This document shows, in pieces, positions 6,210-17,315 of a stretch of 20,335 nt of DNA (its first letter is position 1; the number at the start of each line of letters is the position of its first letter). The DNA comes from a virus (taxonomy: Duplodnaviria; Heunggongvirae; Uroviricota; Caudoviricetes): the IMG/VR virus record IMGVR_UViG_2698536518_000010; one strand, 5' to 3'. The position numbers and the translations under genes are program-made. The notes below the pieces were generated by a model. The model was not told the origin of the DNA, did no database searches, and was given only the letters and a program-made list of their open reading frames with translations.

Positions 6210-6497
6210 TTACTGACTACAATTGTTCTTTTTTTGGTATTTCCTGAATGCCTCACCATTGGGCTGATGTAATCCCATCCCGGCATGTGCCCGGCTGATG
6301 GTTTCGCGCATCTCCCCGAAATTATCCTGCCTTGCTGGTGGGCATGCTGCCTTGTGGATACATTCCGCGCGACGTTTTGCCGCCTGTTCCCGTGCCTTGT
6401 CATCATTCGCCAGCATGATGACCTCAGCCCACCGCGCCGCCGCTCTCCGGTACAGACCACGCGCTTCCAGTGCTTCCGCTTTGCTGTCGTGAATCAT
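6210..6497 (-). CDS. PerC-family-like transcriptional regulator (95 aa)
   Basis: Motif KAEALEARGLYRRAAARWAEV resembles the conserved PerC/Pch core as I recall it. 4-nt overlap with the upstream ProQ-like gene. Confidence 0.5.
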   Translation of the reverse strand: MIHDSKAEALEARGLYRRAAARWAEVIMLANDDKAREQAAKRRAECIHKAACPPARQDNFGEMRETISRAHAGMGLHQPNGEAFRKYQKKNNCSQ

Positions 6498-7036
6498 GCG
6501 CCTATTGTCTCCTTTGCTGCCCGGCGCTGGCGTTTGCGCTTCTCATTCAGCGCCACCAGCCGCGTTTCTGCGTCCTGTTGTTCCTGTGGTGTCACCTCGC
6601 CGCACGGCTGGCCTTTCAGGTCGTAGCGTACCCCACCAGCCATTAAGGCGCGGTAATAGCGCGGACACTGCGCATAAGATGCCAGCGTCGCACGCAATGC
6701 CCCTGGCCCGAATGCCAGCCCCCTGACGGCGAGATCCTGCATCAGGTCGTCGAATATCCCCACCTTAAGCGGCTTCAGTGCTTCCCGGCTGAATAAGTCA
6801 GGCCACAACTCAGTGAGGCGGTTAACGCGCCTGCGGTTTTTGCGCTGGCGTTTGGTCATATGCCGCCACGGTGTCGCCCCTGTAGGCTTCTGCTGCGCTT
6901 TCTGGTTACCGGGCATCACTTTATGCGCCGATGTGGTTTTATCCTGCTCCTGTGCCGCCTGCGTCGTTTTCTGTGGCGTGCCGTAAATACCTTTTGGTTT
7001 TCTGTTAATGGTCAGCTTAGTCATGCTTTGCCCCAT
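6494..7036 (-). CDS. ProQ/FinO-domain RNA-binding protein
   Basis: Segment LTELWPDLFSREALKPLKVGIFDDLMQDL...YYRALMAGGVRYDLKGQPCGEVTPQEQQDAETRL aligns by eye with the E. coli ProQ N-terminal FinO-like domain (LAERFPHCF...PLKIGIFQDL...RVDLDGNPCGEL). Likely true start is ATG at 7024 (GGGG upstream). Confidence 0.8.
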   Translation of the reverse strand: MGQSMTKLTINRKPKGIYGTPQKTTQAAQEQDKTTSAHKVMPGNQKAQQKPTGATPWRHMTKRQRKNRRRVNRLTELWPDLFSREALKPLKVGIFDDLMQDLAVRGLAFGPGALRATLASYAQCPRYYRALMAGGVRYDLKGQPCGEVTPQEQQDAETRLVALNEKRKRQRRAAKETIGA

Positions 7037-7407: not shown

Positions 7408-9213
7408 TTATGTTCTGTCGTTAATCCCTGTAGCTGCTGGCAACCAGCCATCAGCATCATCATCTAACAGAACATTTGTTATCACTCGCCCTTTATCCGG
7501 GCCTTTAGTGCATTTAGCCCGCTTATACTCCTTTCCGTATTCCGCCATAGCTCCTGGCATATCAGTACCAAAGCGTGTCAGTGATACTGGTTTTCCCAGG
7601 CCATGCGCTGACATATAGGCTAAATAAGCATGATACAGGTATCGCCTCGGGCTAAATGGCACTATTTCCGCATTGCCCACCATCATTCCTTCACATTTAA
7701 CCAACGACATCAGATAGCCGCAAAAGTCCACCAGTGAATCACCTTCGCGCTTTATCAACAGCGCTTCTTCTGATTTTTGCTGCTCATAAAGTAGTCTTTT
7801 AGCTTCGTCCTGGTCGGTAAATCGTGTTAGCAAATGGCGAATCACTACCGCCAGTTCGCCTTCTATCTTTTCCGCCAGCATGGGATCGCGTTCGTTCTCC
7901 GGTACGACCTCAGAGAAATTAAATATCACCCTACGACGCGAGATCCCCCCGCTTCGGTCACTGAATGACATGGCGTTATTGTTTACCGCAAGCACTACTG
8001 CCGGAATACGTGTGGAGTAGGGGGCTTTATGTTTCGGATCAATTGCCACCTTGTCGCCGCCAGTAATTGCCTTAATTCCTGCACCATCGCCAGCGTAGCG
8101 AGTCATATCCGGCATGATAATCAGCGAAAAGCCAACTACTAACGCGCGTTCCCTTGCGTCTTCCAGAGCCTTCATGCTTGCCGATACTGTGTTGGCCTTA
8201 CCCGCCAGCATGGTACAAATCTCCGCCATCACACTTTTACCGCTTCCGCCCGGCCCCGTTACCTCAAGGAATAACTGCCAGTCGTACCGGTTCGCCAGTA
8301 CCATGAATAATGCCGCCAGTACGCGATCCGCTTTACGAGCATTATCCGCCACCGAACGACGCAACCACTTCCAGAAATTCGGCGCATGTGTTGCCAGCGT
8401 TTCCCCCTCTTCTGGCGGGCTGAACGGTAATTCACTGGCATTTAACAACCAGTCATTTTTGTTGTGTTCCCGAAAATTTCCTGTCCTGATATCAAAAACA
8501 CCGTTACTGAACCCAATAAGATTTCTGTCCGCTCCCCCCATAACAGGTAGACTCAATTTCATTGTCTCTACGGCAAATTTAATGGCGTTTTGCGAATAAC
8601 TAATTTCGGCATCAATAAAAATCTTCGCCATAGACCGCTGGAGTTCCTTATCAGATACAGGCTCCCAAACAATTCCGTTGTAATGGTGAACTACATCAGA
8701 ATCATCATTTATCGCCAGTGCTCCTCCATAATGTTCAAGTAACACTTCCCCTCTCTGGCTGGCTCCCATCTGATTTAATGCAGGCTTGGGTAGACCACTA
8801 TTTTTTGTAGCTAATTTCATCACTGAAACTTCCCCGTGCTCAGCCTGTTCGCGGATCCGTTGCAGGTAGTCGCGCCAGTTCTCCGGTTCCTGGTCGGTGA
8901 TACCTTTGTATAATTTCGCCTCCTGTACGCCAGCCAGCGCCAGCTTTTCAGCGATAGTATTGATCTGGATTGGCTCTATCTCCCCCGCGATATAGACACG
9001 CGCAAAACGGCGTTTCTCGTCAATAATGCGGATATTCGCCAGGTCTGCCAGTTGCTTTGGCCCCAGGTAAACAGGAGGCACGTTATCGCCGTGTTTTCGT
9101 CCTTCACTTTCAATCCAGTGTTGAGCATGGGCGTAAGCATCCGTCCCGGCAAAAATGATTACCTCAGTGAATTTATCCTTCGGCTGATATTTTAGACTCG
9201 GTGCGTTTTTCAC
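7408..9213 (-). CDS. Replicative primase/helicase, P4 alpha-like (SF3 helicase P-loop GPGGSGKS)
   Basis: 601-aa ORF. Walker A VTGPGGSGKSV and Walker B-like LIIMPDM. Start overlaps upstream gene (ATGA). Followed by the iteron region. Confidence 0.85.
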   Translation of the reverse strand: MKNAPSLKYQPKDKFTEVIIFAGTDAYAHAQHWIESEGRKHGDNVPPVYLGPKQLADLANIRIIDEKRRFARVYIAGEIEPIQINTIAEKLALAGVQEAKLYKGITDQEPENWRDYLQRIREQAEHGEVSVMKLATKNSGLPKPALNQMGASQRGEVLLEHYGGALAINDDSDVVHHYNGIVWEPVSDKELQRSMAKIFIDAEISYSQNAIKFAVETMKLSLPVMGGADRNLIGFSNGVFDIRTGNFREHNKNDWLLNASELPFSPPEEGETLATHAPNFWKWLRRSVADNARKADRVLAALFMVLANRYDWQLFLEVTGPGGSGKSVMAEICTMLAGKANTVSASMKALEDARERALVVGFSLIIMPDMTRYAGDGAGIKAITGGDKVAIDPKHKAPYSTRIPAVVLAVNNNAMSFSDRSGGISRRRVIFNFSEVVPENERDPMLAEKIEGELAVVIRHLLTRFTDQDEAKRLLYEQQKSEEALLIKREGDSLVDFCGYLMSLVKCEGMMVGNAEIVPFSPRRYLYHAYLAYMSAHGLGKPVSLTRFGTDMPGAMAEYGKEYKRAKCTKGPDKGRVITNVLLDDDADGWLPAATGINDRT

Positions 9214-9500
9214 TTCTTACCTCCCGCAACCAACATTGCCCGGATTTTTTTAATATTCGTGGCTGCACGTCTCGCCACTGCCTGTTGTTTGTTTTCCACC
9301 AGAATAAAATCACGATCAAACTGACGGCGCGGCATTACGCAGTCATATTCGTAAGCCTCACGGCGGTAGGTGATATTGCCTGGCGTAACGTGACGAATAA
9401 CCACCCGTCCCCCGCGTCTGGTGTCCCGGGAAATATCACCGGGGCGGATTTCAGGCCGAGAGAGGCCGCTGGCAGTAAAGCCAGAATTTTTCTTTTTCAT
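9210..9500 (-). CDS. Hypothetical basic protein (96 aa) in the replication operon
   Basis: ORF whose stop overlaps the primase start. No recognisable domain. Confidence 0.5.
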   Translation of the reverse strand: MKKKNSGFTASGLSRPEIRPGDISRDTRRGGRVVIRHVTPGNITYRREAYEYDCVMPRRQFDRDFILVENKQQAVARRAATNIKKIRAMLVAGGKK

Positions 9501-9504
9501 GGTT

Positions 9505-9705
9505 TTATTTTCCTGTCAGCAGTTCCGGTTTTATTTCCGCACGAATACAAAGTTCAGAAAAAAATTCAGGAGAACCAACAATCTCATTACTTTTCAGTCG
9601 GCATTGTGATTTCACTTTCCCTTTATCCAGGTAAACCAGTACGCGTCCGGTGAAATCATCTGGCACATTAAGCACTACGGGTACATGCGCTTCATGATTA
9701 TGCAT
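9505..9705 (-). CDS. Hypothetical protein (66 aa), short paralogue of the 9924-10289 gene
   Basis: GGAGGA Shine-Dalgarno. N-terminus MHNH...DDFTGRVLV parallels MHNL...EKFTGQLLV of the larger gene. Confidence 0.5.
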   Translation of the reverse strand: MHNHEAHVPVVLNVPDDFTGRVLVYLDKGKVKSQCRLKSNEIVGSPEFFSELCIRAEIKPELLTGK

Positions 9706-9931
9706 GGCTTACATCCTCCGTGAATTTTCTTCTGTAACGCGTCTCTGCCACATATTCCGCATAGTCCGACGCAATACTAAGAATCATTTCACCCTCTGAC
9801 TTGTAGCCACTGGTATTGATAAGAAAATATGCAGCTTTCATCATGTCAGCAACGCTCAACAATGCGCCCGCTGCATCTTCCGGTGCGCCATCAAATTCCC
9901 GTTTCAGGGAATTAAAACGATCATCACGCAT
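9698..9931 (-). CDS. Hypothetical protein (77 aa)
   Basis: ORF overlapping neighbours by 8 nt at both ends (operon-style packing). Confidence 0.45.
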   Translation of the reverse strand: MRDDRFNSLKREFDGAPEDAAGALLSVADMMKAAYFLINTSGYKSEGEMILSIASDYAEYVAETRYRRKFTEDVSHA

Positions 9932-10289
9932 GTTTACCCCCCTGAATGACCTGATAACCGCAACTGGTCAGCAACTCGATAAATTCCGGCAGTGTGCCGA
10001 AACAGCAATCATCACGCAGCCGTTCGCGGGATACTTCAACGCCGTTTTCGTAGTGACTCACCATACGCCCGGTAAAATGCAGATCATCATCGTGATGGCT
10101 CGTTGACGGCTTAATCAGTCGCGCACGTTCCGCCAGTTCCAGCAATGCTTCAACGCTTCCGGCAATTGCACCATCCGGCAGGTGGTAATTACGCACTATG
10201 CGCCCGTTCTCCACATTGACCAGCAACTGCCCGGTAAATTTCTCGTCAAACTGAATGCTGTTAAGGTCAGAAATTGACAGGTTATGCAT
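9924..10289 (-). CDS. Hypothetical protein (121 aa from SD-supported ATG at 10289; ORF track start 10307)
   Basis: AGGAGGT Shine-Dalgarno 6 nt upstream of ATG at 10289. Paralogous N-terminus to the 9505-9705 product. Confidence 0.5.
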   Translation of the reverse strand: MHNLSISDLNSIQFDEKFTGQLLVNVENGRIVRNYHLPDGAIAGSVEALLELAERARLIKPSTSHHDDDLHFTGRMVSHYENGVEVSRERLRDDCCFGTLPEFIELLTSCGYQVIQGGKHA

Positions 10290-10506
10290 GGTGCACCTCC
10301 TGCACATCAGCCATGATAATTTTTCCGGCCTTATCCAGTGCCTGATCGGCTTTTAGCTGCACAAATGCTAAATAATGGGAGATGCATTCTGATTCTCTGG
10401 CTGCGTGTTTATGCGCCACACCAGCGATAGCAGAAATCTCAATAAGTGAATCCATCAGCGTTTTGATAGCGTCTACCGCTGCATCAGGCCATGTTGCATT
10501 ACACAT
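10282..10506 (-). CDS. Hypothetical protein (74 aa)
   Basis: ORF with ATGTGTAA start/stop overlap with the upstream 67-aa gene. Confidence 0.4.
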   Translation of the reverse strand: MCNATWPDAAVDAIKTLMDSLIEISAIAGVAHKHAARESECISHYLAFVQLKADQALDKAGKIIMADVQEVHHA

Positions 10507-10702
10507 GTTCCACCTCCTGGCGAATACGGGCTGCGAATACCATCACGCAGCCATCAGGAGATTGCTGGCGTGCTTCCTGTTCGCTGGTGGCCTCGATGTG
10601 AATTACGCGCGGTTGTGCCGTGCTCAGGGCGATAAAACGCCAGATGTATTTATTCAGGTTGTGCGAGTCCCGCCCTTGCGGGTGTGTGGTATGATTTCTC
10701 AT
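10499..10702 (-). CDS. Hypothetical protein (67 aa), first gene of the leftward operon
   Basis: C-terminal part of the 435-codon ORF-track frame. ATG at 10702 preceded by GAGGT Shine-Dalgarno. Lies just downstream of the operator cluster. Confidence 0.45.
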   Translation of the reverse strand: MRNHTTHPQGRDSHNLNKYIWRFIALSTAQPRVIHIEATSEQEARQQSPDGCVMVFAARIRQEVEHV

Positions 10703-10798
10703 AGCTACCTCGATACTCTTGCTATCGTTGGTGGTTAGACGCCCTGCATGTGTGCCACCACTGCGGGGCGTTGTCGTTTCTGCACCTTGCATCAACAA

Positions 10799-10853
10799 GG
10801 TGTTGAACACCAATTTAAGCCTAGGTGTTAAACACGTCAAGTGTTGAACACTT
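10799..10853. promoter_or_regulatory. Three copies of an 11-bp perfect palindrome GTGTT(G/A)AACAC (10800-10810, 10825-10835, 10841-10851); candidate operator cluster in a divergent promoter region
   Basis: Read directly. Third copy overlaps a TTGAAC -35-like hexamer with CATACT 17 bp downstream. Sits between the leftward operon and the rightward small RHH gene. Confidence 0.6.
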
Positions 10854-10901
10854 ATTTTTTTTCCTGCATACTGCATTTGTTTTTTGTAAGGGGTACACAA
10901 C

Positions 10902-11081
10902 ATGGCGACAAAAGCAGTAAACGCAAAATCACAAACAGTTGCGGCAAGGGTTCCGCATGAAGTTATGAACAATGTTGAGGCGGTAAAAATGCCTGGTGAA
11001 AGTACAGGGCAGTTTGTAACAGCAGCATTAAAGCGAGAAGTTGAATACCGCCAGCGCCGCAAGGCCAAAGAACAGGAGTAA
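10902..11081 (+). CDS. Ribbon-helix-helix (Arc/CopG-like) small DNA-binding protein, 59 aa (below ORF-track cutoff)
   Basis: ATG at 10902 with AAGGGG upstream. Translation MATKAVNAKSQTVAARVPHEVMNNVEAVKMPGESTGQFVTAALKREVEYRQRRKAKEQE fits a beta-strand/helix/helix pattern. Confidence 0.45.
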   Translation: MATKAVNAKSQTVAARVPHEVMNNVEAVKMPGESTGQFVTAALKREVEYRQRRKAKEQE

Positions 11082-11798
11082 CCATCACCAGCGCCGTGGT
11101 GTGAGGAACTACGGTGCATCGTTTTACAGGGCTGCGCCATGACCAACAAAGAATCAACCAATACACCATCACCGGCACGGAAAAGACAGCGCAGAAAGAT
11201 AGCGTACGAGCATGAGTCAAACAGATTCGCGCCCTGTGCGTTTATCCTTGAGAAATTCCTTAAAGAGTACAGGCGCACAAAAATGGGGTCGCATACCTGG
11301 AAAACATCGCGGCATGGCAATGTTAAAGAGCAGGAATAGCCCACCAGCAAGCCAGCATATTCACCATAATGACCCTCAGTTAAACATAGAGTCATTGGTG
11401 CAAAGCTGACACATTGCCCACCAGCCGCAAATCTGGCATTGTTGGCGATGCGTTCAAGTATGTAGCTTTCCCACTGGCGGCCCTCTGCGGTCGCCTTTGT
11501 TTTATCCAGAACGAAATCAGACATCAGATTGATCAGCACCTGGCGACCTGACAAAATCGCATCAGTCGCGCCACCAGCAAAATTTTTTGCTTTCCGGACA
11601 GTGTGACCAACGACATTTTGCAGCAAAATATTCTGCATTTCTGGCGTGCTGTAGTAACGGTGATCAGCGCCTTCACTCTGTGCGACCACAACGCTATAAT
11701 CTGCCTCGTAGACAGTAAGCAATATGGCGCAGTAGGCTATTCGTTCACAAAGGCGCTCCGGCAACGGGGCGCTTTCTCTTTTTGTAACGGTCAGAGCG

Positions 11799-12599
11799 TT
11801 ACACATGGCTGTTTTCCTCCATGCGACGGGCTAACCAACGCTGCGAAAGACGAATTAATTCAGCCTTCCGCTGGTGGTAGTCCTGGCCTAACTCAATCAG
11901 CGTGATATTGCTCTGCTCAAGGTAAGAAAGGTGCTCAAGCTGCAACGTGCTCATGTGGTCGCGTGGTTCGCCTGTAATGCCGTTCGCCAGTGCCCACTGT
12001 TTTGCAGTCATGCCACCCAGTACGATACGCGCCAGCATGTTCGCTTCCGTGGTGTAGTGGTGCTGGAGTGTGTTTTTACCCAGTTCAGCCCGGTACGCCT
12101 CCAGCGCGGCACACATTGGCTTAAAGTAGCTGGCAACTGTGATACGGGCTTTCAGTTCCCGGCGTAACGCTGCGGAACGAACAGGCGCAACCTTGTGTAG
12201 CTCCTCCTCGCATTTGATAAAGTACTGGCGAACGGCGCGGCCCTGTTCGGTACGTTCGACCATCGCCAGTTCTTTCGCCATGTTCACTGTGATGATGTAC
12301 TCAAGAGCGGTTTGCTGGCGAGATTTTGCGCTCACCGGATCGGGTCGGCTCAAATATTCAACAACCTCATAATCCACGCCTTCCGTGAACCCGTATTCTT
12401 CAATGCGCCCCTTGATCCACGAACGGAAAACGCGCCCTACACCTAACGCCTTATGTAACGCTCTGGCGCTAACAATAGTGGTTTCACTCCCGCCAATAAC
12501 GCCGGAAATAATCGGGATAATTTCGCCGAAATTTTGCAGATTCTGGTTTTCAGGCCGAACGAAGCCCCGCCCCTGTACGGGCGTTTTTGGAAATTTCAT
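11799..12599 (-). CDS. Phage antirepressor-like protein (ANT/KilAC-type motif)
   Basis: 266-aa ORF. Segment ITVNMAKELAMVERTEQGRAVRQYFI resembles the conserved antirepressor core as I recall it. Confidence 0.6.
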   Translation of the reverse strand: MKFPKTPVQGRGFVRPENQNLQNFGEIIPIISGVIGGSETTIVSARALHKALGVGRVFRSWIKGRIEEYGFTEGVDYEVVEYLSRPDPVSAKSRQQTALEYIITVNMAKELAMVERTEQGRAVRQYFIKCEEELHKVAPVRSAALRRELKARITVASYFKPMCAALEAYRAELGKNTLQHHYTTEANMLARIVLGGMTAKQWALANGITGEPRDHMSTLQLEHLSYLEQSNITLIELGQDYHQRKAELIRLSQRWLARRMEENSHV

Positions 12600-12676: not shown

Positions 12677-12874
12677 TCAGGTAGCTGTTCCGCGTGATTC
12701 CGCAATACGCTGATTAATCCACTCGTCAATTTCACTCTCAACGAAAGCAATAGCTCGCGAGCCAATTTTAACTGATGCAGGAAATTTACCTTGCCCCATA
12801 AGGCGATAAATCCATGCCTTGCTATATCCAGTTCTACGCTGAACTTCTGTTAAACGAATAAGCGTATTTGACAT
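12677..12874 (-). CDS. alpA: AlpA/Vis-family transcriptional regulator / excisionase-like protein
   Basis: 65-aa ORF MSNTLIRLTEVQRRTGYSKAWIYRLMGQGKFPASVKIGSRAIAFVESEIDEWI, typical AlpA-type HTH. Located two genes from the integrase. Confidence 0.85.
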   Translation of the reverse strand: MSNTLIRLTEVQRRTGYSKAWIYRLMGQGKFPASVKIGSRAIAFVESEIDEWINQRIAESRGTAT

Positions 12875-14027: not shown

Positions 14028-15242
14028 TCATCCACATTTTCCGAACTTGCCATGCACCACGTTACCGCCATGTTCGAGCGAATCCATATAGTCGGCGTAC
14101 CACTGGAGCATCTCGCGCCGCCCGTCCAGATATTGCGCATGATTGTACGTGCCACGAATTGAGTTCTTATCAACGTGTGCAAGCTGCGTTTCTATCCACG
14201 CGGTGTTATAGCCCTGCTCATGTAAAATCGTGCTCATGGTGTGCCGGAATCCATGACCAGTAACCTTTCCGTTATAGCCGATGCGTTTAAATACTTGGTT
14301 TATGCTAGCCTCGCTCATTGTTTTCCTTGGATCATTACGGCCGGGAAACATAAGCGGATAATTACCAGTTAATTCTTTAATCTGCCCAATAAGAGAAAGA
14401 GCCTGCTTAGACAAAGGCACCACATGAGGGCGACGCATTTTCATCCGTGAAGCAGGTATCTCCCAGATAGCCTTGTTGAGATCGATTTCATCCCATAATG
14501 CACCGCGCAGTTCGCCAGTTCGCAAACCAGTGATAATCAGTAGACGAGCCGCCATAACAACCAATGCACTTCCTGAGTAACTGGACAATGCCTTGAAAAA
14601 ATCAGGCAATTCTTTGGCTGTGAGGAAAGGATAATGATTAGATTCATGGCCTTGCATCGCGCTAGTAAGATCTGGGGCAGGGTTATACTCTGCGCGACCA
14701 GTGACTATTGCATAGCGGAAAACTTCCCCGCACCGCTGCCTCACTTTTTTGGCTTTTTCTGTAGCACCGCGCCCCTCGATGCGTCGCAGCACATTCAGAA
14801 GTTCAAGTGGTTTGATTTCGGCGATTGGTTTTTTGCCAATGTAAGGGAACACATCTTTGTTGAAGGCTTCGAGGATATCTGAAGCATAACCAGCAGACCA
14901 TTTTTTTAATTTGCTGCTGTGCCACTCAAGGGCAATATCTTTGAAGGTATTGTTTAACTGCGTTTCCCGGGCAATCTTTTCCTCTCGTTTCGCTTCCATC
15001 GGATCGATACCCCCAGCGATACCCCTTTTAGCTTCTTCACGTTTTGCACGAGCATCAGCCAAGGTAACTTCAGGATACACACCTAGTGCTAACAGCTTCT
15101 CTTTACCAGCTACACGATATTTAAAGCGCCAGTATTTTCCTCCACTAGGTTTTACCAGGAGATACAGACCACCACCATCAGCCAGCTTGTAAGCCTTCTC
15201 TTTTGGCTTGGCAGTGTCTATTTGACGGGCATTGAGTTTCAC
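14028..15242 (-). CDS. int: Tyrosine recombinase, P4-type integrase
   Basis: 404-aa ORF with GTG start preceded by GGAGGT. Catalytic signature residues (RTGELR, HGFRHT, SIRGTYNHAQY). Adjacent to the tRNA 3' fragment. Confidence 0.9.
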   Translation of the reverse strand: MKLNARQIDTAKPKEKAYKLADGGGLYLLVKPSGGKYWRFKYRVAGKEKLLALGVYPEVTLADARAKREEAKRGIAGGIDPMEAKREEKIARETQLNNTFKDIALEWHSSKLKKWSAGYASDILEAFNKDVFPYIGKKPIAEIKPLELLNVLRRIEGRGATEKAKKVRQRCGEVFRYAIVTGRAEYNPAPDLTSAMQGHESNHYPFLTAKELPDFFKALSSYSGSALVVMAARLLIITGLRTGELRGALWDEIDLNKAIWEIPASRMKMRRPHVVPLSKQALSLIGQIKELTGNYPLMFPGRNDPRKTMSEASINQVFKRIGYNGKVTGHGFRHTMSTILHEQGYNTAWIETQLAHVDKNSIRGTYNHAQYLDGRREMLQWYADYMDSLEHGGNVVHGKFGKCG

Positions 15243-16030: not shown

Positions 16031-16106
16031 CCCTTAAGTTCCTAGCCGCTTATCTATAACTATGGAAAAATGTTAACCCTGACTGTATGCTAACAAAGGG
16101 ATGTAT

Positions 16107-17315
16107 ATGTCGGTTTTTCATAACTGGCTGCTTGATATCGCAAGCGGGAATTACTTTATCTACATCAAACGCCTTTCTGCAAACGACACTGGCGCAACAG
16201 GTGGCCATCAGGTCGGACTTTATATCCCCTCAAATATCGTTGAAAAGCTTTTTCCATCTATCAATCATACTCGCGAACTGAACCCTTCAGTCTTCCTTAC
16301 TGCGCATGTATCATCCCATGATTGCCCTGATACCCAAGCACGCGCAATTTATTACAACAACCGTTATTTTGGTAAGACCCGAAACGAAAAAAGAATTACG
16401 CGCTGGGGGAGAGGAAGTCCATTACAGAACCCTGAAAATACAGGAGCTCTCACAATTCTTGCTTTCAGGTTAAACGAACAGAACACTGACTGTTCCGAGG
16501 TAGATATATGGGTCTGCGTCAATCCCGATGAAGAGGATATCATCGAGTCTGCTATTGGCGAAATCATACCTGGAACCCTAATTTCCGGCCCTGCCGGACA
16601 AATTTTGGGCGGATTATCTCTTCAGCAAACTCCAGTAAATCATAAATATGTTATTCCTGAAGACTGGAAGAAGCGTTTTCCTTCTGGAAACGAAATTATT
16701 CAATATGCTGCTGGCCATTATGCTAAAAACTCCAAGGATCCAGATGAGCAACTGATTGACCGTCGGCGTGTCGAGTATGATATTTTTCTACTCGTCGAGG
16801 AATTACATGTTCTTGATATTATTAAGAAAGGATTCGATTCTGTAGATGAGTTTATTGCATTAGCCAACTCTGTCAGTAATCGACGTAAATCAAGGGCAGG
16901 CAAATCACTTGAACTTCACCTAGAGAAGCTTTTTATCGAGCACGGACTACGGCATTTCTCCACTCAGGCAGTTACTGAAGGTAATAAAAAACCAGATTTC
17001 CTGTTTCCTTCAGCAGAGGCATATCATAACGTTGAATTTCCTGTAGAAAACTTACGTATGCTGGCAGTAAAGACCACCTGCAAAGATCGCTGGCGTCAGA
17101 TACTGAATGAAGCAGATAAAATCCATCAGGTACATTTATTTACACTGCAAGAAGGTGTTTCTTCAGCACAATACCGAGAAATGAAAGATGCGGGTGTCAG
17201 ACTCGTTGTACCATCAACTTTACATAAAAAATACCCAGAAGCAGTTAGAGAAGAATTAATAACGCTCGGAGCATTCATTACTGAGCTGATAGAGCTTTAC
17301 GCTGAACTATCATAG
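16107..17315 (+). CDS. Type II restriction endonuclease, EcoRII family (expected CCWGG specificity)
   Basis: Protein closely resembles EcoRII as I recall it across its length (MSVFHNWLLDI..., RLSANDTGATGGHQVGLYIP, ...KTTCKDRWRQILNEADKIHQVHLFTLQEG). AAAGGG Shine-Dalgarno supports the ATG at 16107 over the ORF-track 16101. Confidence 0.85.
   Translation: MSVFHNWLLDIASGNYFIYIKRLSANDTGATGGHQVGLYIPSNIVEKLFPSINHTRELNPSVFLTAHVSSHDCPDTQARAIYYNNRYFGKTRNEKRITRWGRGSPLQNPENTGALTILAFRLNEQNTDCSEVDIWVCVNPDEEDIIESAIGEIIPGTLISGPAGQILGGLSLQQTPVNHKYVIPEDWKKRFPSGNEIIQYAAGHYAKNSKDPDEQLIDRRRVEYDIFLLVEELHVLDIIKKGFDSVDEFIALANSVSNRRKSRAGKSLELHLEKLFIEHGLRHFSTQAVTEGNKKPDFLFPSAEAYHNVEFPVENLRMLAVKTTCKDRWRQILNEADKIHQVHLFTLQEGVSSAQYREMKDAGVRLVVPSTLHKKYPEAVREELITLGAFITELIELYAELS

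Follow-up and report, generated by a model that had tools for sequence, protein, structure and literature searches.

A divergently transcribed ribbon-helix-helix protein with exchangeable operator specificities as a candidate repressor of replication in Gram-negative phage satellites

The stretch of DNA analyzed here, the IMG/VR virus record IMGVR_UViG_2698536518_000010 (20,335 nt, hereafter the window), carries a gene for a 59-aa protein of predicted ribbon-helix-helix (RHH) type that is divergent from a leftward operon running from an Icd-like gene to a primase gene. The gap between the Icd-like gene and the 59-aa gene is 199 bp long and holds a group of short palindromic boxes. With a probability of about 0.75, the RHH protein represses the replication operon as its immunity determinant and regulates its own gene, and it is predicted to bind these boxes with specificities that are exchanged between elements as cassettes. 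The initial annotation had suggested that the protein binds the palindromes, regulates its own gene and controls the leftward operon, a suggestion now supported, at the level of sequence comparison, by the position of the boxes, by their co-variation with the protein among relatives and by a test of neighboring genes. Its alternative, that the protein is an antirepressor, gained no support, while the role of candidate "immunity switch" is plausible. Coordinates of all features are collected in Table 1.

Operator boxes and promoters

The three palindromes reported for this region were recovered, beginning at 10800, 10825 and 10841 with start-to-start spacings of 25 and 16 bp. In every box, arms of 5 bp flank a single central base, and in the first and third boxes the arms reach 6 and 7 bp, respectively. 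When up to one mismatch was allowed, GTGTTGAACAC gave six strand matches, that is three sites, against 0.31 expected, a count of six that none of 100 shuffles reached, and no further site of this kind was found elsewhere in the 20-kb window. Box O1 is located just downstream of the leftward -10 element, over the expected transcription start. Box O2' is placed immediately upstream of the leftward -35 element and at the same time overlaps the rightward -35 element.

The leftward promoter, P_left, is the predicted promoter of the Icd-like-to-primase operon. Its layout recurs in 35 distinct upstream regions, with a TTGACG-like -35 element, a spacer of 16-18 bp holding O2, and a TAnnnT -10 element that abuts O1. 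It can be observed that CGTCAA is conserved right after the middle box, which is the TTGACG -35 element of the leftward promoter. The rightward promoter considered plausible in the initial annotation stood only in part. Its -10 position is conserved, most relatives having TATACT at -36, and across the 35 distinct regions this element abuts box O3; however, in the window the promoter matches the consensus at only 8 of 12 positions, which is under the scan threshold, and the scan reports the leftward promoter instead.

Repression rather than activation is suggested by the operator position. Instead of a maintenance repressor, the RHH protein on the boxes might be an activator or a Cro-like regulator of the lytic phase, since the co-variation described below reveals recognition and not the sign of regulation. 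Mnt of phage P22 both represses Pant and activates its own promoter. Published induction of Gram-negative phage-inducible chromosomal islands (PICIs) is, moreover, activator-driven. Against such a role, the boxes fill the spacer between -35 and -10 and cover the start site of P_left, most relatives have a further box over the start site of the rightward promoter, and box positions of this kind are typical of steric repression. An activating or Cro-like function is therefore considered unlikely.

Co-variation of boxes and protein among relatives

Relatives of the module comprised 35 loci from one-genome-per-species contigs and 13 more obtained by exact protein look-up. A de novo motif search in about 40 loci, blind to the box of the window, returned an 11-mer in three copies at approximately -102, -77 and -32 from the ATG in almost every locus, and the homologous box at about -102 is found in approximately 35 loci. 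O2 was taken from 37 loci by its [N]TCAA anchor, blind to box content, and is located at -76 to -78. The general box is GTG-N5-CAC, in which only the N5 core varies, and about a dozen classes can be distinguished, each following residues 11-15 of the RHH protein (Table 2). Relatives of specificity class A have four boxes, at -102, -77, -61 and -32. The extra box of O2' type is confined to this class, with full copies in the window and in loci L002, L006 and L046-L049 and a degenerate copy in L003. In the window and the near-identical Edwardsiella hoshinae locus the first three boxes are kept, while the -32 box on the rightward start site is lost, and autoregulation here would therefore rest on the box overlapping the rightward -35 element.

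In Mantel tests, the identity of the boxes was correlated with residues 1-9 (r = 0.66, p = 1e-4) and with residues 10-17 (r = 0.52, p = 1e-4), p-values that overstate the support because related loci are not independent. The correlation with helix A is 0.10 and not significant, and that with helix B is weak at 0.18. Association with residues 1-17, and not with the helices, points to a dimer whose β-strands would read bases in the major groove of the boxes.

A cassette swap and a neighbor test provide arguments independent of those p-values. Between the window and L037, a locus of E. coli, identity exceeds 95% over the leader, the Icd-like gene and codons 31-59 of the RHH gene; divergence is limited to the segment from O1 through RHH codon 30, and there the boxes differ. 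In an all-versus-all comparison of neighboring open reading frames (ORFs), pairs of at least 85% identity in the RHH family were concordant with box class in 34 cases and discordant in 1, whereas the integrase, AlpA-sized and Icd-sized ORF families contained many discordant pairs. Among the neighboring ORF families, only the RHH family tracks the box class. Two Xenorhabdus genomes carry two elements each, and the classes differ within each genome (L018/L029 and L020/L031).

These comparisons also bear on whether the boxes are read by another regulator of the element, namely AlpA, the Icd-like/Ash-type protein or the downstream 66-aa protein, the target of the RHH protein lying elsewhere. AlpA is a known activator of Gram-negative PICI operons, and the Icd-like protein carries the label "transcriptional repressor" in phrog_6196 and phrog_1743. 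However, the Icd-like protein is near-identical in the window and L037, where the boxes differ, and the Icd-like proteins of L006 and L014 are likewise similar with different boxes. L039 and L040 share boxes and differ in the downstream ORF, the AlpA-sized and Icd-sized clusters hold the discordant pairs noted above, and the mosaic patch is limited to the boxes and RHH codons 1-30. The AlpA-site and Icd-like-binding readings were rejected on the neighbor test, and binding by any of these other regulators appears very unlikely.

PICI origins are built from repeats, and the boxes lie at the head of a replication operon, so that they might instead be iterons or an origin element read by the primase or replicase, with the small ORF incidental. 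The founding paper on Gram-negative PICIs mentions a conserved origin organization. Yet the published PICI origin lies downstream of the rep gene, the boxes of the present module are positioned exactly on promoter elements, and similar D5_N primases occur with different box classes (window, L037 and L042). The repeat does not track a cognate replicase: one box class occurs with three unrelated replicases (D5_N, DUF927-Toprim and AAA_25), and the iteron reading was therefore rejected as extremely improbable.

Table 1. Positions of the features discussed, in window coordinates
Feature	Position	Strand	Sequence, basis or remark
Box O1	10800-10810	.	GTGTTGAACAC, exact; extended palindrome GGTGTTGAACACC at 10799-10811
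Box O2	10825-10835	.	GTGTTAAACAC, one mismatch to GTGTTGAACAC; fills spacer between leftward -35 and -10
Box O2'	10841-10851	.	GTGTTGAACAC, exact; extended palindrome AAGTGTTGAACACTT at 10839-10853
P_left	10812-10840	-	TTGACG 10840-10835, 17 bp, TAAATT 10817-10812; promoter scan, 9/12
P_right (weak)	10844-10872	+	TTGAAC 10844-10849, 17 bp, CATACT 10867-10872; read by eye
RHH-type predicted DNA-binding protein, 59 aa, YlcI/YnfO family	10902-11081	+	ORF, family hidden Markov model, coding test
Terminator-like hairpin after RHH gene	11091-11117	+	Terminator scan; also 3' of both RHH genes in L039
Structured 5' leader of leftward operon	10704-10772	-	Comparative fold
Icd-like gene, 67 aa, first in leftward operon, divergent from RHH gene	10499-10702	-	NF033153, E 3.8e-20; RefSeq annotation
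Rest of leftward operon	7408-10506	-	Five tightly packed or overlapping small ORFs (one DUF4222) and primase; DUF4222 ORF and primase come last
D5_N/DUF5906 primase, end of leftward operon	7408-9213	-	Pfam scan
AntA/AntB-type gene	11799-12599	-	Profile scans
AlpA/excisionase-like helix-turn-helix gene	12677-12874	-	Profile scans
int-alpA RNA motif RF02996	13916-13983	-	45.5 bits vs cutoff 35.8
Tyrosine integrase	14028-15242		Library scan

Table 2. Residues 11-15 of the RHH protein and the box found with them
Residues 11-15	Box
QT[VLI]AA	GTGTT[GA]AACAC
QSLKS	GTGTGG[CT]CCAC
[KR]KLEA	GTGT[CT]AGCCAC
KRFDV	GTGTC[CG]GACAC
KKIDV	GTGTCAGACA[CT]
QK[VLI]Q[AT]	TGGAnTnCA in most boxes
QKMSA	CTGGC[AG]CCCA
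QSVTA	GTGTCTTACAC
QALRA	GTGGTCTACAC

Coding status, family and fold of the 59-aa protein

The short ORF has, as had been pointed out, a good Shine-Dalgarno sequence (AAGGGG, 8 nt before the ATG), and its frame is supported as coding by purifying selection. Mean synonymous and nonsynonymous differences were pS 0.72 and pN 0.225, with pN smaller than pS in all 190 of 190 pairs, a signal limited to the frame of the ORF itself and absent from the other two frames. The initial annotation was mistaken in calling the gene unannotated, for RefSeq genomes of E. coli name it "YlcI/YnfO family protein" (WP_000201462.1). Residues 9-50 match NCBIfam NF041551 over profile positions 1-42 (59.7 bits vs cutoff 30, E 2.1e-16), and in PHROGs the protein is phrog_949, listed as unknown. 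The ORF was assigned to no family by a scan of the Pfam-A library at E up to 1, which returned only a spurious Med10 match; DUF3950, the label of K-12 YlcI, was also unmatched in that library scan at E up to 1, its model not being scored separately.

A β-strand is predicted at approximately residues 10-17 (SQTVAARV), followed by helices at 19-28 and 35-58, which corresponds to the N-terminal strand and two helices of the RHH superfamily pattern. No significant profile match to a known RHH family was obtained with Pfam, with PDB sequences or with hhalign against Arc. In the last comparison R16 and P18 fell on R13 and P15 of Arc, in the right register, at a probability of only 5%. Profile searching of PDB sequences brought up no meaningful match, and Foldseek against the PDB no significant one. 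RHH proteins of ParG/Omega type invite the further explanation that this one is a centromere-binding or copy-control protein of a plasmid-like state, the boxes being its centromere. Against this, no ParA-type ATPase is found beside the module in any locus with gene calls, the boxes number only three or four and all lie on promoter elements, and the fold matches are not significant for any one subfamily; a centromere function is regarded as highly improbable.

Distribution and variants of the module

The module is common, occurring in E. coli, Salmonella, Klebsiella, Pectobacterium, Xenorhabdus, Proteus and Edwardsiella, with over 5,000 assembly blocks indexed for a single allele. The satellite branch forms a narrow, separate group within YlcI/YnfO, with 79 representatives at 50% identity. 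The locus of Edwardsiella hoshinae NBRC 105699 (L002, 3800-4180) scarcely differs from the window in its operator region and RHH gene: 58 of 58 aligned residues agree, the three boxes are shared, and both have lost the -32 box. Such near-identity to an E. coli-type window suggests that the RHH/operator module moved recently between genera.

Several loci depart from this arrangement. In E. coli CP028381 (L039, 4500-4870) a second, unrelated 59-aa RHH-like gene (VSTHKNERRGNPPFQFRLDPDLREK..., with an Arc/Mnt-like strand) stands after the first module, with a remnant of the Icd-leader hairpin and the palindrome ATGTGTATATACACAT in front of it. A different RHH/operator pair can therefore occupy this slot. 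Enterobacteriaceae RIT693 and Cedecea neteri (L004/L005) carry a class A-like RHH protein (SQTLAARVP) in a different upstream context, where the 125 bp upstream of the gene contain a single box-like site, CTGTCGAACAG, directly after CATACT, and no divergent Icd-like leader. As judged from its sequence, this arrangement would be one of autoregulation without a leftward promoter. A Klebsiella satellite protein (L033) has an intermediate sequence with an NFSAWV motif, and its boxes are of the GGTG-N-CAC type.

Leader of the leftward operon

The leftward operon begins with a 5' leader that is a conserved, structured RNA, in which a small hairpin at 10704-10735 surrounds the ribosome-binding site and start codon, and a GC-rich hairpin occupies 10738-10772, the two being separated by the conserved TTGTGGTTAGA. 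Compensatory changes occur in 16 of the 25 predicted pairs (25 loci), with a fold z-score of -3.9. The GC-rich hairpin, read on the plus strand, is followed by a T-rich tract, and it could also end a short antisense RNA. An Rfam scan of 10600-10920 at a permissive threshold gave sub-threshold matches only, among them R1162 antisense RNA (16.5 bits vs cutoff 55). Since this amounts to sub-threshold noise, an immunity RNA of P1 C4-like or P4 CI-like type is not supported by the scan.

Island context

Judged by its gene content, the window carries a phage satellite of PICI-like type, inserted beside a tRNA gene, a description based on the gene set at tRNA-Thr and on the match in layout to EcCIMP1. 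An E. coli chromosome is 100% identical across a 1.1-kb query (window 10400-11500) and has the same gene set at tRNA-Thr beside proA; published PICI EcCIMP1 has a similar layout with tRNA-Thr, AlpA, antirepressor, primase and PerC. Integrase, AlpA and primase/rep genes in order together with an att site, and no phage lysis or tail genes, are the hallmarks of Gram-negative PICIs found here. No match was found among 50,697 phage records with megablast or tblastn. According to profile and library scans, the order rightward of the RHH gene is the 66-aa ORF, antA, the alpA-like gene, the int-alpA RNA and the integrase, the RF02996 motif being placed between the integrase and a 267-aa ORF upstream of alpA.

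Downstream of the primase, at 6210-7036 on the minus strand, the window encodes a ProQ/FinO-family protein and a PerC/ANR-like regulator, as in EcCIMP1, whose PerC-like gene represses LEE1. At the other side, another ORF resembling a tyrosine integrase (16101-17315) precedes genes that the best-matching E. coli annotations give as a DNA cytosine methyltransferase and a type II restriction endonuclease, and the segment 16101-19784 looks like a separate island abutting the satellite.

A frame of 435 codons (10499-11806, minus strand), whose ATG overlaps the antA stop (ATGTGTAA), passes antisense across the 66-aa ORF, the RHH gene and the operators before continuing in frame into the Icd-like gene. 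As a real gene it was rejected for the part overlapping the RHH gene, because selection acts in the RHH frame and RefSeq starts the Icd-like gene at 10702. The first 155 aa (11341-11806) are unannotated in RefSeq. Homologues are deposited as "Icd-like" proteins of 220-260 aa whose middle parts differ or lack the RHH module (P0154), and there are also shorter ones of 90-124 aa. It is likely that a real small gene follows antA.

Comparison with known systems

One close parallel is immI of phage P22, where Mnt/Arc act at the divergent promoters Pmnt and Pant. In both cases a small RHH protein is divergent from the operon it controls (or here, by prediction, would control), with operators over core promoter elements and autoregulation, the latter again by prediction here. 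However, the present protein has no significant sequence homology to Mnt/Arc, three or four 11-bp boxes replace the one operator of P22, and the target is the Icd-like-to-primase module of a satellite rather than arc-ant of a phage. Another parallel is Stl/Rpr of Staphylococcus aureus pathogenicity islands (SaPIs) and further PICIs of Gram-positive bacteria, whose gene likewise stands between the integrase and replication sides and points away from the replication operon, and the proposed role of keeping the island quiescent is shared. Stl-type repressors are much larger, helix-turn-helix proteins. Stl/Rpr are derepressed by a helper-phage protein; for the RHH protein such relief is one candidate route.

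The RHH protein scores above the cutoff of NF041551, the family of YlcI (DLP12) and YnfO (Qin) of E. coli K-12, to which no function is assigned, and YlcI shows the same strand-helix-helix pattern (...NIRFPNQMIEQI...NFSAWV...). The ylcI gene is located beside cos and nohD in a lambdoid prophage rather than beside a replication operon. In K-12 DLP12 (L052, 5252-5840) it is transcribed away from the cos/nohD region, and no obvious equivalent of the box layout was seen upstream of it when the region was looked over without a repeat search. Among RHH repressors of replication and copy control, CopG of pMV158 is co-transcribed with its target, unlike the present gene, and Omega of pSM19035 reads 7-bp heptads instead of 11-bp boxes; neither system has exchangeable specificity classes like those of the present module.

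The founding paper on Gram-negative PICIs describes the islands as "transcribed unidirectionally" and a global repressor as "unclear". The RHH gene is unmentioned in the EcCIMP1 and cf-PICI (capsid-forming PICI) papers, and a 2026 survey lists YlcI/YnfO merely as an accessory gene of two cf-PICIs.

Several observations weigh against the RHH protein as the autoregulated repressor. The consensus strength of the rightward promoter is weak, as described above. Partial correlations between boxes and protein are moderate (0.34 vs 0.29), because related loci share both features. The mapping from strand to box is not strictly one-to-one, two QKIQA loci having somewhat different boxes, and residues 12 and 14 alone fail to predict the box, K12/S14 occurring with two box types. 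In Gram-negative PICIs the activator AlpA is required for induction and its over-expression leads to uncontrolled replication, which needs to be reconciled with a repressor. Full-text literature searches returned no description of the operators, of the role of the protein, or of binding or repression, nor any published test of derepression on loss of the gene or by a helper-phage protein. Of the studied prototypes EcCICFT073 and EcCIEDL933, the former was sought in CFT073 at guessed coordinates, where only a lambdoid prophage and core genes were encountered.

Proposed mechanism and biological meaning

As in the position of a PICI master repressor, the RHH gene is divergent from the replication operon, with the putative operators at the promoter of that operon. 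An RHH dimer would insert its N-terminal β-ribbon into the major groove of the 11-bp GTG-N5-CAC boxes. The three boxes bracket and fill the core of P_left, and since they cover both its spacer and its start site, the protein, once bound, would block RNA polymerase. The Icd-like-to-primase operon would then be off and the replication module of the satellite silent. The third box, over the -35 element of the rightward promoter, would provide negative autoregulation, for which most relatives would use the box abutting the rightward -10 element. Box core and recognition strand appear to be swapped jointly as a cassette between elements, and in this way about a dozen specificities without mutual cross-reaction may have arisen, comparable to those of phage immunity regions.

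Relief of repression may follow either of two candidate routes. In the first, a helper-phage protein would bind the variable C-terminal half of the RHH protein as an anti-repressor. In the second, AlpA-driven read-through from alpA-antA would pass antisense across the RHH gene into the operon. The latter is a testable route, because no terminator is predicted on the minus strand between antA and the RHH gene, where three are predicted on the plus strand.

The RHH protein is very probably the island's own repressor, to judge from the comparisons above, a component so far undescribed for Gram-negative islands of the PICI type. A broader proposal is put forward tentatively, at slightly less than even odds: that the present RHH protein is the missing maintenance repressor and immunity determinant of many Gram-negative PICIs and cf-PICIs, silencing the replication operon through operators within P_left, with a dozen or more cassette-exchangeable specificities and co-resident elements that would not be cross-repressed, and that it may be overridden during helper infection by a helper anti-repressor or by AlpA read-through.

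An RHH repressor with promoter-overlapping operators is of a known kind, and the specific interest of the present case lies in satellite biology. For work on RHH recognition rules and on orthogonal repressor-operator pairs, the naturally occurring combinations of strand and box are available as a resource. A first function is proposed for the satellite members of the y-ome family YlcI/YnfO, and a divergent RHH protein with exchangeable specificities constitutes a concrete and cheaply testable candidate for the Gram-negative PICI repressor. If true, the broader proposal would revise the view of Gram-negative PICIs as unidirectionally transcribed, activator-only elements.
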